Positions 41,306-63,541 of a stretch of DNA of 64,000 bases are shown here, one piece after another. The notes below the pieces were generated by a model. That model saw only the letters and a program-made list of their open reading frames with translations, was not told the origin of the DNA and ran no database searches. Location of the stretch: NCBI RefSeq assembly GCF_013122565.1, contig NZ_CP053258.1; one strand, given 5' to 3'. Numbering within the stretch: the first letter of the stretch is position 1; every line of letters starts with the position of its first letter. The DNA is from Escherichia coli (GTDB taxonomy: Bacteria > Pseudomonadota > Gammaproteobacteria > Enterobacterales > Enterobacteriaceae). Position numbers and translations under genes: made by a program.

Positions 41306-41478
41306 AAAGTTCTTTTGCGTTGCATTGCTGGCGTAAATGTCAGCAATGCAGCATTTCCTCACGATTCTCCTTTGACGATCGCACTTTTTGCTCGTTATGA
41401 TGGCGTCGCTAGCCTCAGTAAATCCTTACTCCGGCGGTGCGCAACCCGTGCGCGTGAACCACTATCTGAATGCTCATC

Positions 41479-42414: not shown

Positions 42415-42595
42415 TAGGCAGGATAAGGCGTTTACGCCGCATCCGGCATTCGGAGCACAATGCCTGATGCGATGTTTGCGCATCTTATCAGGCCTACAAA
42501 CGTGACGCGTCCGTAGGCAGGATAAGGCGTTCACGCCGCATCCGGCATCCGGTGCACGCTGGCTGATAAGATGCTTGCGCATCTTATCAGGACTC
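42415..42595. repeat. BIME/REP cluster between convergent pbpG and dld
   Basis: Two copies of gcaggataaggcgtt(t/c)acgccgcatccggcat plus repeated gcgcatcttatcagg units. Confidence 0.75.
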
Positions 42596-60839: not shown

Positions 60840-61928
60840 TCACGGCAGGCGGTGGCGGGCTTGATAATAAGCCTGCCAGTGAGCTTCTTTATGTGTGGCG
60901 ACTCGCTGTTCGAAGTAACGGCGCAGACGAGCGCGATCTTCTTCGTTATCTTTGACGATGGTTCCGGCAATACAGTCCACCAGATCGGCTGGCTCACCTG
61001 CGCGATTCGCTAAAAACCAGGCGCGGACGCCCACAGCGTGGGCCACGTTCACGGCTTCAGCGGTGGACATAATCGCTGTTAGTGTATCCATTGACGTTTT
61101 CTTTTCGCCGTTGGCACGCAGATCGCGGAAGGTGCGGACCAGTAACTCCAGTACCGCGTCAGGCACTTTATGCGGAATACCGCTATGGGCCAGCAAACGC
61201 GCCGAAGCACTGGCGACCAGTTCCAGCTCCTGAGCGAAATCCATAATCGGAAAGACAGTTTCAAAATCGAAGCGACGCTTTAGCGCAGCACTCATCTCAT
61301 TGACGCCGCGATCGCGCGTATTGGCAGTGGCAATAATATTAAAGCCTTCCCGCGCATAGAGTTGACTGGCTTCACCAGTGAGTTCCGGCACCGTCATCAC
61401 CCTGTCAGAAAGCATACCTAACAGACAGTCTTGCACTTCCAGCGGTGTACGCGTTATCTCTTCAAAACGGACGATTTTGCCGTCGCGCATTCCCTGGTAA
61501 AGCGGGGCAGGGACCAGCGCTTCCGTTGATGGACCATGATTGATAAGCAGAGCGTAGTTCCAGCCGTACTTGATTTGATCTTCAGTGGTAGATGCGCCGC
61601 CCTGGATGGTTAACCCGGCATCGCCGCTAATAGCGGTTGCCAGTAATTCAGACAGGAGAGATTTTGCGGTGCCCGGTTCCCCCACCAACATCAAACCGCG
61701 CCCGGTGGCAAGAGTGACTAACATACGTTCGACAGCAGAGGGACTAATCACGACTTTACGGCTAATATTTTGCGCGCTATCGCCAAGGATAAAAGCACGT
61801 GCCGCAGGCAAACTTAACTGCCAACCGGGCGGGCAAGGTGCGTTATCATTTTGTTTTAATTTTGCCAGTTCATCGGCGTATAACACAGCGGCAGGCGGAC
61901 GCTGCAGATGATTATTCTGCGGTGACAT
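60840..61928 (-). CDS. yehL: MoxR-like AAA+ ATPase YehL
   Basis: ORF-track 60840..61994; internal ATG at 61928 gives 362-aa MSPQNNHLQRPPAAVLYADEL...; Walker A GEPGTAKS. Confidence 0.88.
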   Translation of the reverse strand: MSPQNNHLQRPPAAVLYADELAKLKQNDNAPCPPGWQLSLPAARAFILGDSAQNISRKVVISPSAVERMLVTLATGRGLMLVGEPGTAKSLLSELLATAISGDAGLTIQGGASTTEDQIKYGWNYALLINHGPSTEALVPAPLYQGMRDGKIVRFEEITRTPLEVQDCLLGMLSDRVMTVPELTGEASQLYAREGFNIIATANTRDRGVNEMSAALKRRFDFETVFPIMDFAQELELVASASARLLAHSGIPHKVPDAVLELLVRTFRDLRANGEKKTSMDTLTAIMSTAEAVNVAHAVGVRAWFLANRAGEPADLVDCIAGTIVKDNEEDRARLRRYFEQRVATHKEAHWQAYYQARHRLP

Positions 61929-62037
61929 ATATTCATCCCTGAAATGTATTAATGAAATAAACGATATTTTACGCGCAATAAATGTTTGGTGCATTAGTTG
62001 TTTGAGCGAAAAATATCTGGAAAGCAGATCACAGTAA

Positions 62038-62120
62038 ATAAAAAAACCTGCTGGTGAGGCAGGTTCTTTTATTTACTACAGTGACGCTAACTTGCTGATT
62101 GTGCAACATTTCGTACCAAC
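62038..62120 (-). ncRNA. orzO: OrzO-like type I antitoxin sRNA (about 83 nt)
   Basis: Minus-strand promoter (-35 TTGCAA at 62150-55, 17-bp spacer, -10 TATAAT as reverse complement of 62127-32); 5' region complementary to the zorO 5' UTR; ends at hairpin aacctgc-tggtgag-gcaggtt (62045-62065) followed on the minus strand by TTTTTTT. Confidence 0.7.
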
Positions 62121-62126
62121 GAATAA

Positions 62127-62177
62127 ATTATAACCATATCCACACTCCATTGCAATTCAGTGAGTGAGATTTATAAT
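62127..62177. promoter_or_regulatory. Overlapping divergent promoters of orzO (-) and zorO (+) sharing one -35 hexamer
   Basis: Palindromic TTGCAA (62150-55) serves as -35 for +strand -10 TATAAT (62172-77, 16-bp spacer) and -strand -10 TATAAT (62127-32, 17-bp spacer). Confidence 0.65.
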
Positions 62178-62358
62178 CCTGCCCGTTGGGAGGTTGTGCC
62201 GGATCGGACCAATTTTAAGTCCTGGCTGCCGGACGGGTGGTGCCGCAGGCGGTGCCCTGATCCGGAGAGCAACGTTTCGTACCAACATACGTAAACCAGT
62301 ATCGACAGGCAGTGTAAGGGTAAGGTGCTGGTGTTGCGCTCCTTAATAAGGAGAGCGG

Positions 62359-62448
62359 ATGGACACGCTGACACAAAAGTTAACCGTGCTCATTGCCGTA
62401 CTGGAGTTATTAGTGGCTCTGTTACGGTTGATTGATTTGTTGAAGTAA
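62359..62448 (+). CDS. zorO: Type I toxin ZorO (29-aa hydrophobic peptide)
   Basis: Hand translation MDTLTQKLTVLIAVLELLVALLRLIDLLK*; strong SD aaggag 5 nt upstream; about 174-nt 5' UTR from the predicted TSS; matches my recollection of ZorO from E. coli O157:H7. Confidence 0.85.
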   Translation: MDTLTQKLTVLIAVLELLVALLRLIDLLK

Positions 62449-62469
62449 CGGGCAAATTGAAACGCATCT

Positions 62470-62496
62470 AAGGGGGAATACCGTTTCCCCCTTTAA
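62470..62496 (+). terminator. Terminator hairpin after zorO
   Basis: Stem aagggggaa / ttccccctt with 6-nt loop, short T tail. Confidence 0.55.
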
Positions 62497-62645
62497 TAAA
62501 ATGATTACATCTTCCATTAATTCACCCGATAACTTTTTTCATATTTATAAATTCATCGATTTTATAATCAACGTACTATTTGGCCGGGATGTGAATAATC
62601 ATGGTGGGCTATTGGCGAAAAATATCTGGAAAGTAGATCGCAGAA

Positions 62646-62729
62646 AATAAAAGAACCTGCTGGTGAGGCAGGTTCTTTTATTTACTACTTTGATGTTAAG
62701 TTACTGATAGTGCAACATGGCATCTCAAC
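62646..62729 (-). ncRNA. orzP: OrzP-like type I antitoxin sRNA
   Basis: Same architecture as orzO: -35 TTGCAA 62759-64, -10 reverse complement of 62736-41, hairpin 62654-62674 plus T-run on the minus strand. Confidence 0.65.
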
Positions 62730-62735
62730 GAACGA

Positions 62736-62786
62736 ATTATAACCACCTCGGGGCCGTGTTGCAATTAAGATAATGAGATTTATAAT
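62736..62786. promoter_or_regulatory. Overlapping divergent promoters of orzP (-) and zorP (+)
   Basis: Shared TTGCAA (62759-64); +strand TATAAT 62781-86; -strand TATAAT reverse complement of 62736-41. Confidence 0.6.
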
Positions 62787-62967
62787 CCTGACTGTTGGGA
62801 AGTTGCGCCGGATCGAACCCATTTCAAGTCCTGGCTACCGGACGGGTGGTGCCGCAGGTAGTGCTCTGATCCGGAGTGCAACATGGCGACTCAACATACG
62901 TAAACCAGTATCGACAGGCAGTGTAAGGGTAAGGTGCTGGTGTTGCGCTCCTTAATAAGGAGAGCGG

Positions 62968-63057
62968 ATGGACACGCTGACAAAAAAGTTAACCGTGCTC
63001 ATTGCCGTACTGGAGTTATTAGTGGCTCTGTTACGGTTGATTGATTTGTTGAAGTAA
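62968..63057 (+). CDS. zorP: Type I toxin ZorP (29 aa; one substitution, Q6K, relative to the upstream copy)
   Basis: Hand translation MDTLTKKLTVLIAVLELLVALLRLIDLLK*; identical SD and context to zorO. Confidence 0.85.
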   Translation: MDTLTKKLTVLIAVLELLVALLRLIDLLK

Positions 63058-63078
63058 CGGGCAAATTGAAACGCATCT

Positions 63079-63105
63079 AAGGGGGAATACCGTTTCCCCC
63101 TTTAA
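63079..63105 (+). terminator. Terminator hairpin after zorP
   Basis: Same aagggggaa / ttccccctt hairpin as after zorO. Confidence 0.55.
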
Positions 63106-63110
63106 TAAAG

Positions 63111-63238
63111 CTATACTCGTCATACTTCAAGTTGCATGTGCTGCGACTGCGTTCGTTCACCCCGGTCACTTACTTTAGTAAGCTCCTGGGAATTCACTCG
63201 CTTATCGCCTTCCTGCAACTTGAATTATTTAGAGTATA
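63111..63238. repeat. ERIC (IRU) enterobacterial repetitive intergenic consensus element
   Basis: Reverse complement of 63150-63198 reads gtgaattcccaggagcttactaaagtaagtgaccggggtgaacgaac, matching the ERIC core GTGAATCCCCAGGAGCTTACATAAGTAAGTGACTGGGGTGAGCG; terminal inverted repeats ctatactcgtcatacttcaagttgca / tgcaacttgaat...agagtata. Confidence 0.85.
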
Positions 63239-63541
63239 TTATTCTATTTCTTGGTTGAATATATTCTGTAGTTCGCGATTAAAAATTGCTATTACCGTTT
63301 CAGGTGATTCACCTCGTAATTTCCGCTCATCAATACACTCATCTCTTATATAAATCAACGCATCATTTATTTGCGGGTCGGCATCATTAAATGTTGGATG
63401 TAGCCGGAATCGCTCCAGCCGGTAGACGGAACCTGTAAATAATTCAGAGCATTTATGGATCTCAAGTCTGAAGGAAAACGGATCTTCAGGTACAGGGACC
63501 TCATAATCGTAAATAGCAACCAGCTCTTTTTGCACGATCAT
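63239..63541 (-). CDS. yehK: Small uncharacterised protein (YehK-like)
   Basis: 100-aa ORF MIVQKELVAIYDYEVPVPEDPF...; the position between yehI and yehL corresponds to yehK in K-12; identity by synteny only. Confidence 0.5.
   Translation of the reverse strand: MIVQKELVAIYDYEVPVPEDPFSFRLEIHKCSELFTGSVYRLERFRLHPTFNDADPQINDALIYIRDECIDERKLRGESPETVIAIFNRELQNIFNQEIE

Follow-up and report, generated by a model that had tools for sequence, protein, structure and literature searches.

A tandem two-copy zor-orz type I toxin-antitoxin array between yehL and yehK in Escherichia coli

Genes and features of the yehL-yehK interval

In the window, a 64,000-nt stretch of the E. coli contig NZ_CP053258.1, the region between yehL and yehK consists of two tandem zor-orz units, 62006-62497 and 62615-63106. 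Each is 492 bp long; they repeat with a period of 609 and share 89.6% identity, far above chance. A preliminary description of this DNA had recognized the tandem repeat, but its period of 610 does not hold. Direct-repeat blocks were found at 62006-62136 and 62615-62745 (D2, 86%) and at 62150-62449 and 62759-63058 (D1, 92%). The yehL-yehK intergenic region is empty in the RefSeq annotation, in line with the earlier remark that the open reading frame track had missed these genes. The features, with +1 positions and sRNA 5′ ends as predicted, are as follows.

60840-61994, minus strand: yehL, flanking ORF
62006-62497: repeat unit 1, a cassette of the zorO/orzO type, 492 bp; identity to the O unit of O157:H7 98.8%, to the P unit of O157:H7 88.5%
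62040-62120, minus strand: orzO sRNA gene, ~81 nt, Rfam RF02083 match of 88.8 bits covering 62040-62113; putative 5′ end at 62120
62127-62155, minus strand: orzO promoter, -35 TTGCAA, 17-nt spacer, -10 TATAAT; the hexamers equal the published consensus (PMC11264685, Table 3)
62150-62177, plus strand: zorO promoter, -35 TTGCAA, 16-nt spacer, -10 TATAAT; its -35 overlaps the orzO -35 (PMC11264685, Table 3)
62185-62358, plus strand: zorO 5′ UTR, 174 nt, putative +1 at 62185
62269-62286, plus strand: OrzO target in the zorO 5′ UTR, GCAACGTTTCGTACCAAC; 18 consecutive pairs with the OrzO 5′ end, one of them G-U, -32.9 kcal/mol
62348-62353, plus strand: zorO RBS AAGGAG, 5 nt upstream of the ATG, within the anti-SD hairpin CTCCTT-AAT-AAGGAG
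62359-62448, plus strand: zorO ORF, 29 aa, MDTLTQKLTVLIAVLELLVALLRLIDLLK, exact match to 'Small toxic protein ZorO' (UniProt ZORO_ECO57)
62470-62493, plus strand: zorO 3′ hairpin, AAGGGGGAA-loop-TTCCCCCTT and a short U tract, -15.3 kcal/mol, z = -2.1
62498-62614: spacer between the units, AT-rich, of the O-Q spacer type by comparison with strain NT1F10
62615-63106: repeat unit 2, zorQ/orzQ-type cassette, 89.7% identical to the O157:H7 O unit and 90.1% to its P unit
62649-62729, minus strand: orzQ sRNA gene, ~81 nt, Rfam RF02083 match of 90.2 bits covering 62649-62722; putative 5′ end at 62729; fold z = -4.6
62736-62764, minus strand: orzQ promoter, TTGCAA, 17-nt spacer, TATAAT
62759-62786, plus strand: zorQ promoter, TTGCAA, 16-nt spacer, TATAAT
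62794-62967, plus strand: zorQ 5′ UTR, 174 nt, putative +1, in the same register as unit 1
62876-62895, plus strand: OrzQ target in the zorQ 5′ UTR, GTGCAACATGGCGACTCAAC; 19 of 20 positions paired (a 13-nt run with one G-U, one internal mismatch, then 6 nt), -37.6 kcal/mol
62957-62962, plus strand: zorQ RBS AAGGAG, 5 nt upstream of the ATG, in the anti-SD hairpin
62968-63057, plus strand: zorQ-type ORF, 29 aa, Q6K allele, MDTLTKKLTVLIAVLELLVALLRLIDLLK; net charge +1, GRAVY 1.38
63079-63102, plus strand: zorQ 3′ hairpin, identical to that of unit 1
63239-63541, minus strand: yehK, flanking ORF

Both minus-strand sRNAs match the Rfam OrzO-P family (RF02083) over its full length, model positions 1-76 of 76, with scores above the gathering score of 60, and each gene closes with a 12-bp hairpin (62045-62065 in orzO, 62654-62674 in orzQ) and a U run, as expected from the earlier account of a divergent sRNA ending at an intrinsic terminator. 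OrzO is predicted to fold into a single-stranded 5′ seed, a small stem-loop and the 12-bp terminator (z = -2.4). Its 5′ end was set 7 nt past the -10 hexamer, making the first 18 nt the pairing seed as published (PMC3919570). The match of orzQ to the Rfam ohsC model is weak and sub-threshold (35 bits; gathering score 50), and we regard the Rfam hits that fall below threshold here (ohsC, STnc370, Trp leader, and ncr1015) as terminator-driven or due to chance. Divergent promoter-like TTGCAA/TATAAT pairs occur in both units and on both strands, with exactly four sites in 61900-63300, a count no higher than in shuffled sequence (3.6 ± 1.8). The zorO 3′ hairpin was not called by a consensus terminator scan because only three T follow it.

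The remaining features of zor-orz membership are present as well, namely the 29-aa hydrophobic Zor peptide, the promoter hexamers, the AAGGAG RBS and the putative 174-nt 5′ UTR (PMC5397157; PMC11264685, Table 3). Hence the preliminary description was right in placing the two tandem copies in the known O157:H7 type I family, and in its account of two 29-aa hydrophobic peptides, the second with Q6K, behind a strong SD and a long 5′ UTR. The exact ZorO peptide is found on at least 1000 contigs, and has a GRAVY of 1.40 and a net charge of 0. An NCBIfam scan of both 29-aa peptides found no family. The 22-nt anti-SD/SD hairpin was present in three non-coli Escherichia species in a one-genome-per-species scan, which is not a census because the E. 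coli representative went unreported though ATCC 11775 contains the 22-mer.

The same yehL and yehK neighbors surround the zor-orz locus in O157:H7, GF3-3, K-12, and E. whittamii. An assembly artefact was rejected as the source of the duplication, given that about 10% of positions differ between the units and that independent complete genomes have the same layout. A 49-aa ORF in the spacer (62501-62650) was also rejected as a gene because stops interrupt its frame in other spacer types. Nothing in the sequence of the window conflicts with the zor-orz explanation.

Cognate pairing and predicted translational control

With its +1 at 62185, zorO has its RBS at +164 to +169 and its Orz target at +85 to +102, matching the published register (PMC5397157), and the EAP region (+73 to +102) falls at 62257-62286. 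In the minimum free energy structure of the zorO 5′ UTR, +1 to +22 is paired with +74 to +102, and the same architecture is predicted for zorQ, with the 5′ end pairing to the EAP/target region and the RBS in a hairpin. Removal of 28 nt is predicted to open the target modestly, from P(unpaired) 0.35 to 0.47 in unit 1 and from 0.40 to 0.51 in unit 2. The zorO RBS stays closed: its P(unpaired) is 0.07 at full length and 0.08 in the delta-28 RNA, and values of 0.07-0.08 describe both RNA forms in the UTR folds generally.

The published thresholds for repression call for a run of 15 or more continuous pairs, or for 17 or more pairs if there is one internal mismatch. OrzO on zorO (18 continuous) and OrzQ on zorQ (19/20, one mismatch) pass them, whereas the cross pairs of the window do not: their longest runs are 9 and 7, with 4-5 mismatches. 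Duplex energies in the window are -33 and -38 kcal/mol for the cognate pairs vs. -23 and -25 for the cross pairs; when the O, Q, and P types are taken together, the cognate values are -32.9, -37.6, and -39.0 kcal/mol and the cross values range from -23.4 to -29.5. Pairing also covaries among types: for the types O, P, Q, and Q′, paired cells make up 95% vs. 26-40% in slid controls, and both sides have changed in 5/20 pairs, in a sample of four distinct types only. Since the two pairing segments of a cassette are directly repeated at the DNA level, gene conversion between them could give the same pattern as selection for pairing.

These features are consistent with the following scheme. Each cassette would be transcribed from back-to-back sigma-70 promoters. 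The rightward transcript would be a zor mRNA with a 174-nt 5′ UTR; at full length its first ~22 nt would pair over +74 to +102 and its RBS would be locked in the CTCCTT/AAGGAG hairpin, so that translation would be poor. Loss of the first 28 nt would expose the EAP at +73 to +102, a putative ribosome standby site, and make the 29-aa membrane peptide translatable. The leftward transcript would be the ~81-nt Orz sRNA, the single-stranded 5′ end of which would pair with the 3′ part of its own cassette's EAP, blocking standby loading and leading to RNase III cleavage. Because the pairing sequence differs between cassettes, each sRNA would control only its own toxin. Toxicity on overexpression, rescue by the sRNA, and dependence on RNase III have been demonstrated for EDL933 zorO/orzO only (PMC3919570), and delta-28 processing and the role of the EAP come from the literature on EDL933 zorO (PMC5397157). 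Both cassettes are probably expressed and functional in the source strain.

Taken together, the evidence makes it very probable that the window holds a real, intact-looking two-copy array of the Escherichia chromosomal zor-orz type I toxin-antitoxin, in the order zorO/orzO then zorQ/orzQ and with the described control mechanism. Publications already cover the system with its mechanism, copy-number variation, and three locus types, and the view that this family assignment was known rather than new was correct. Automated pipelines miss zor-orz genes, and the value of the present work lies mainly in correct annotation.

Cassette identity, rival readings, and array evolution

The preliminary description had called the first unit zorO/orzO, which its sequence supports, and the second zorP/orzP as in EDL933, with Q6K as the ZorP difference. 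Two tandem copies do lie at the O157:H7 site, and the Rfam family that matches both sRNAs carries the name OrzO-P. However, unit 2 resembles the P unit no more than it does the O unit. Its pairing sequences (orz GTGCAACATGGCATCTCAAC with the target listed above) differ at several positions from those of the P type (…CATCGTGTTCCAAC and …CATCGTGGTCCAAC), and O157:H7 OrzP reaches just -29.2 kcal/mol on the unit 2 target vs. -39.0 on its own. Moreover, EDL933 ZorP differs from ZorO by T3S rather than Q6K (PMC11264685), and the yehL-adjacent unit is P in O157:H7 but O-type in the window. The O/P labeling is therefore refuted, with next to no chance of being right.

Unit 2 is instead best assigned to zorQ/orzQ, the third described type. 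The orz and zor pairing sequences of unit 2 are identical to those of the A20S-encoding unit of strain 602354 (a four-place genome) and to those of unit 3 in the three-copy arrays of NT1F10 and ZF34. Since this pairing type encodes the published ZorQ (A20S) in 602354, unit 2 would be zorQ/orzQ. The published criterion for the type is a BLASTn bit score >650 against a zorQ/orzQ query (PMC11264685). The A20S allele of 602354 lies in a GAGCTA… nucleotide context, and a 61-nt query for A20S in the O/Q nucleotide context had no exact match. Unit 2 is matched by 1,094 E. coli records at 95-99%, including units at 98.6% in ST69, C4, and many other strains, and most Q-type units in our sample encode the ZorO peptide sequence. 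The O, P, and Q labels are best set by pairing sequence, not by array position or peptide substitution.

Q6K is a private allele of the window: the unit 2 peptide had no exact match in a collection of 15 billion proteins, and the CAA>AAA change occurs in none of 5,426 complete E. coli genomes (best match 61/62). Such absence suggests a recent allele, untried by selection, and would suit a functionally altered or decaying unit 2, in which Q6K (charge 0 to +1, beside K7) weakens or changes toxicity and zorO is the sole active toxin. The neighboring K7E substitution, which abolishes ZorO toxicity, points the same way, but K7Q remains toxic (PMC9860968). Furthermore, unit 2 has intact, consensus-like regulatory elements throughout, the GRAVY of its peptide is practically that of ZorO, and the Zor of E. 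whittamii has Q6R at the very position altered in unit 2, indicating that a basic residue recurs there. Decay of unit 2 is quite improbable on this evidence, and the Q6K peptide is probably still toxic.

A different reading holds that an RNA-level function (other Orz targets, or a stable zor mRNA with an effect such as aminoglycoside tolerance) is the main reason why the locus persists, toxin-antitoxin activity being secondary. Orphan antitoxins lend it some weight. P-type orz and its promoter are intact in K-12 and HS, which have no toxin gene, orz stands alone in about 30% of E. coli genomes, and the K-12 orphan antitoxin OrzPmg is published as conserved and expressed (PMC11264685). In addition, the non-toxic ZorO variant R23L still improved growth in kanamycin (PMC9860968). 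Conversely, the peptide is strongly conserved, with an identical Zor sequence in 24/30 sampled units from 11 distinct ORF sequences that vary synonymously; sRNA seed and target covary between types, which argues that the toxin-control circuit itself is under selection; experiments have shown toxicity and rescue for zorO/orzO (PMC3919570); and no other Orz target is known. We regard a primarily RNA-level role as unlikely, if slightly less so than decay of unit 2.

The wider distribution bears on two further statements of the preliminary description. The toxin genes are indeed absent from K-12, which has no zor ORF, but the same site still holds a P-type orz gene with the two promoters, plus ~31 nt from the 5′ UTR of zorP. 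To call the locus accessory is a stretch, given that, of 5,426 complete E. coli genomes, 3,396 have a zor ORF and 5,232 at least part of the locus.

Unit 1 carries slot-1 (yehL-side) variants up to 62035, is identical to all other units over 62036-62078, and is O-like from 62079. The segment 62260-62735, which covers the inter-unit spacer, is 98.9% identical to the O-Q junction of the three-copy array of NT1F10. In its O-Q order the window corresponds to units two and three of a three-copy P-O-Q array, and the putative breakpoint lies within the conserved orz terminator. The O and P specificity types are common to E. coli and E. whittamii. It is conceivable, and we propose it tentatively, that zor-orz is a small recombining cassette array in which old O, P, and Q types are reshuffled by unequal crossing-over, giving P-O-Q, P-O, P-Q, and O-Q arrays and single copies. 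Recombination may break only within stretches that all units share unchanged (the orz terminator, and the zor ORF with its 3′ end), which would keep every sRNA seed together with its own target; the window would then have arisen as an O-Q derivative through a breakpoint in the 43-bp block of the orz terminator, and would carry a private Q6K. Such a limit, if it applies genome-wide, would amount to a population-genetic sign that orphan toxins are selected against. The private Q6K and the O-Q layout with its orz-terminator breakpoint are small additions, usable for a study of array evolution.

Comparison with known systems

The zorO-orzO system of E. coli O157:H7 EDL933 is the subject of Fozo 2010, Wen 2014 (PMC3919570), and Wen 2017 (PMC5397157). 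Unit 1 agrees with that cassette at 98.8% over 492 bp, in the identical peptide, in the 18-nt seed and its target, and in the promoters, the 174-nt UTR register, the RBS hairpin, the terminators, and the yehL-yehK site. The two differ in position: in O157:H7 the O cassette is yehK-proximal and preceded by P, whereas in the window it is yehL-proximal and has a yehL-side left edge up to 62035. Unit 2 has the pairing type of the published zorQ/orzQ, but ZorQ carries A20S and the unit 2 peptide Q6K (PMC11264685). EDL933 zorP/orzP and K-12 orzPmg share family, site, and cassette architecture with the window, while zorP/orzP has the pairing sequence …CATCGTGTTCCAAC and a T3S peptide, and the window contains no P-type cassette.

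We know of no SOS regulation of zor-orz. Like zor-orz, the type I systems tisB-istR1, shoB-ohsC, and dinQ-agrB, which act through a standby site in the 5′ UTR, have a divergent sRNA, pairing far upstream of a sequestered RBS, and an mRNA activated by 5′ processing (PMC5397157). Their peptides and RNAs are unrelated to zor-orz in sequence, and zor-orz, unlike these three systems, forms a tandem array of specificity variants.

Two tandem cassettes of different type

Between the start of yehL and the end of yehK lies a direct repeat (period 609 bp) made up of two zor-orz units (toxin gene plus divergent antitoxin sRNA) of 492 bp each, with a mutual identity of 89.6% and an AT-rich spacer of 117 bp.

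60840..61994, minus strand: yehL, 384-aa ORF
62006-62497: unit 1
62359..62448, plus strand: zor ORF of unit 1, 29 aa, MDTLTQKLTVLIAVLELLVALLRLIDLLK
62615-63106: unit 2
62968..63057, plus strand: zor ORF of unit 2, 29 aa, MDTLTQKLTVLIAVLELLVALLRLIDLLK with Q6K
63239..63541, minus strand: yehK, 100-aa ORF

In both units an AAGGAG ribosome binding site (RBS) precedes the ATG by 5 nt, promoter-like TTGCAA/TATAAT sites stand back to back as a pair, and the minus strand matches Rfam RF02083, the OrzO-P antitoxin, over its full length (88.8 and 90.2 bits, one per unit; gathering score 60). The sRNAs share one predicted fold, in which the 5′ end is free and a small stem-loop precedes a 12-bp terminator hairpin with its U run (z-scores of -2.4 for orzO in unit 1 and -4.6 for orzQ in unit 2). 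The preliminary description of a tandemly duplicated 29-aa ORF with a strong RBS and a divergent, terminated sRNA is therefore confirmed, aside from small corrections to its period of 610 bp and unit length of roughly 495 bp. A 49-aa ORF in the spacer (62501..62650, plus strand) runs into the orzQ terminator. GF3-3 and the O|Q spacer of NT1F10 carry it uninterrupted, but the other spacer type has stops in it, and it is unlikely to be a gene.

Read from yehL to yehK, the first unit of O157:H7 strain 3384 encodes MDSLTQ…, which is UniProt ZORP_ECO57 (T3S), and the second encodes ZorO. Unit 1 is 98.8% identical to the O157:H7 O unit and 88.5% to the P unit, in keeping with its recognition as a zorO/orzO locus. 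The assignment of unit 2 to zorP/orzP did not hold: it is 90.1% identical to the P unit vs 89.7% to the O unit, and its pairing sequences differ from those of both, so it represents a third type.

Pairing segments of the locus types (plus strand)
O type: orz segment GCAACATTTCGTACCAAC; zor 5′ UTR target GCAACGTTTCGTACCAAC
P type: orz segment GTGCAACATCGTGTTCCAAC; zor 5′ UTR target GTGCAACATCGTGGTCCAAC
Window unit 2: orz segment GTGCAACATGGCATCTCAAC; zor 5′ UTR target GTGCAACATGGCGACTCAAC

This third type is common (1,094 records at 95-99%), comes after a P unit in ST69 and C4, and in NT1F10 and ZF34 is the last of three copies, after P and O. A 2024 mSystems study distinguishes O, P and Q types of the locus and gives ZorP as T3S and ZorQ as A20S (PMC11264685). 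In strain 602354 the A20S peptide is encoded by a unit with exactly the pairing type of unit 2. We conclude from these sequences that unit 2 is of the zorQ/orzQ type, an assignment made through the A20S-encoding unit of 602354.

The Zor peptide is conserved at the sequence level. Of 30 units sampled, 24 share an identical peptide, encoded by 11 different ORF nucleotide sequences, and the sample holds six amino-acid variants, each a singleton, and six synonymous codon variants. Q6K had been taken as a ZorP signature, but ZorP is T3S. The exact Q6K peptide was not found among ~15 billion proteins, a collection in which ZorO occurs on at least 1000 contigs, ZorP on 457 and A20S on 326, and none of 5,426 complete E. 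coli genomes matched a 62-nt query with CAA>AAA exactly (best match 61/62 in all 3,396 with a zor ORF). Its absence from both collections marks Q6K, as judged from databases, as a private or very rare allele. With the substitution, net charge becomes +1 instead of 0 and hydropathy is almost unchanged; the P unit of E. whittamii encodes a Q6R peptide. Mutagenesis of ZorO at the adjacent K7, which did not cover Q6, found K7E non-toxic and K7Q toxic (PMC9860968). We regard the allele as a minor lead.

Leader architecture and pairing specificity

EDL933 zorO has a 174-nt 5′ UTR with its RBS (+164..+169) in a stem, a better translated processed form (delta-28), and a region exposed after processing (EAP, +73..+102) that is probably a ribosome standby site (PMC5397157). 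If the +1 of unit 1 is inferred from a 174-nt distance to the ATG, it lies at 62185, 8 nt past the -10 hexamer; the RBS (62348-62353) is then at +164..+169 and the OrzO target (62269-62286) at +85..+102, in exact agreement with the published positions; unit 2 has the identical register, with +1 at 62794. In full-length ViennaRNA minimum free energy structures of both units, +1..+22 is paired across +74..+102. From full length to delta-28, the probability of being unpaired changes from 0.07 to 0.08 (unit 1) and 0.07 to 0.07 (unit 2) for the RBS, and from 0.35 to 0.47 and 0.40 to 0.51, respectively, for the target. The predicted opening agrees with the published model in direction, but is modest in size.

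Published criteria for repression are at least 15 continuous pairs, or at least 17 with one mismatch. OrzO and zorO form 18 consecutive pairs and OrzQ and zorQ 19 of 20, with one internal mismatch, both within these limits; both cross combinations in the window fall short (longest runs 9 and 7). Predicted duplex energies tell the same story, at -32.9 and -37.6 kcal/mol for the cognate pairs of the window, -39.0 for O157:H7 P/P and -23.4 to -29.5 for all cross-pairs. Over a set of four rows only (O, P, Q and Q′, the Q-like variant of ATCC 11775), standard pairs fill 95% of duplex cells (slid controls: 26-40%), and both partners have changed in 5 of the 20 pairs. The pairing segments are direct repeats at the DNA level, so gene conversion inside the cassette could contribute to this covariation.

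Position 7 of the sRNA seed (target column 40 of the pairing-region alignment A1; 62888-62889 in unit 2) is paired in O only and unpaired in P, Q and Q′, an internal mismatch conserved in three of four types. ATCC 11775 (L011, 1039-1830) has a single Q-like cassette. Three positions separate its orz seed, GCAACATGGCGCCCCAAC, from that of standard Q; the zor target of the cassette is standard Q, and this fourth seed variant pairs with one mismatch and one G-U.

Array history and distribution

Arrays sampled, all read yehL to yehK
P-O: O157:H7, E. whittamii
P-Q: ST69, C4, PCN033, 602354
P-O-Q: NT1F10, ZF34
O-Q: window, GF3-3, 2012C-4502
Single O: P15-25
Single P: AVS0655, WP4-S17-ESBL-08
Single Q-like: ATCC 11775
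orzP only: K-12, HS

Positions 62260-62735, which run from the target of unit 1 across the spacer to the orz seed of unit 2, share 98.9% identity with the O|Q junction of NT1F10. In a three-way alignment, unit 1 carries variants of the yehL-side array position up to 62035 and O-type sequence from 62079; the 43 bp between (62036-62078), identical in all units, are the orz terminator. A single unequal crossover within a P-O-Q array, at the 3′ ends of orzP and orzO and with loss of one period, would be the simplest reading, though the event may have run the other way. The whole O-Q locus matches at most 159 of 20,395 records at 95% or more, so the arrangement is uncommon. The O-Q array of 2012C-4502 (L009, 1300-2320) has the spacer found after P units elsewhere and not the O|Q spacer of the window, which suggests that O-Q arrays have more than one origin. 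E. whittamii Sa2BVA5 (L016, reverse-complemented, 134-1430) has a P-O array at yehL-yehK with P and O pairing sequences equal to those of E. coli; the specificity types are therefore either older than the species boundary or cross it. The idea that breakpoints may be restricted to blocks common to all units, keeping seed and target together, is a minor lead.

The locus had been called absent from K-12. Since K-12 MG1655 retains orzP, this is true of the toxin genes only: its 306-bp yehK-yehL intergenic region keeps an intact P-type orz with terminator, both promoters and ~31 nt of zorP UTR, which a deletion fuses to the right end of an ERIC-like element. The orphan K-12 RNA, OrzPmg, is expressed (PMC11264685). 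Some part of the locus was matched in 5,232 of 5,426 complete E. coli genomes, and a zor ORF in 3,396; at 95% or more, O-type units match 1,253 records and Q-type units 1,094. The best E. coli matches among those listed for the flanking segment yehP-yehM-yehL share 97.5-98.6% identity with it, which places the window in E. coli; no complete genome in the collection came out as near-identical in this search. A 22-nt exact pattern, GCGCTCCTTAATAAGGAGAGCG, scanned against one genome per species, located the locus in three non-coli Escherichia species and none other. The scan gave no E. coli record, though ATCC 11775 contains the pattern, so it is unreliable as a census; its E. coli representative may be another, orz-only strain.

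Neighboring elements and relation to known systems

63112-63136 and 63214-63238: arms of an ERIC/IRU-like palindrome
41394-41474, plus strand: Peptidase-S11 RNA motif, 72.8 bits
42417-42494 and 42516-42593, plus strand: naRNA4/CssrE, 80.6 and 65.9 bits

The imperfect palindrome (63112-63238) has the zorQ 3′ hairpin on one side and the yehK stop codon on the other, and agrees with the ERIC1R primer at 19/22 and with the ERIC2 primer at 20/22; its Rfam V_AS5 match (40 bits) is below threshold. It is not in GF3-3, is truncated in O157:H7 and has a nested insert in ATCC 11775; in K-12 its right end is where the deletion is joined. The other matches, from a whole-window Rfam scan, exceed their gathering scores.

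The preliminary description named the family correctly, and zor-orz is already well characterised; the window adds nothing new in mechanism. What the analysis corrects is the second cassette (Q, not P), the standing of Q6K as an apparently private allele, the statement on K-12, and the cassette order from yehL to yehK, which is P-O in O157:H7 whereas it is O-Q in the window.
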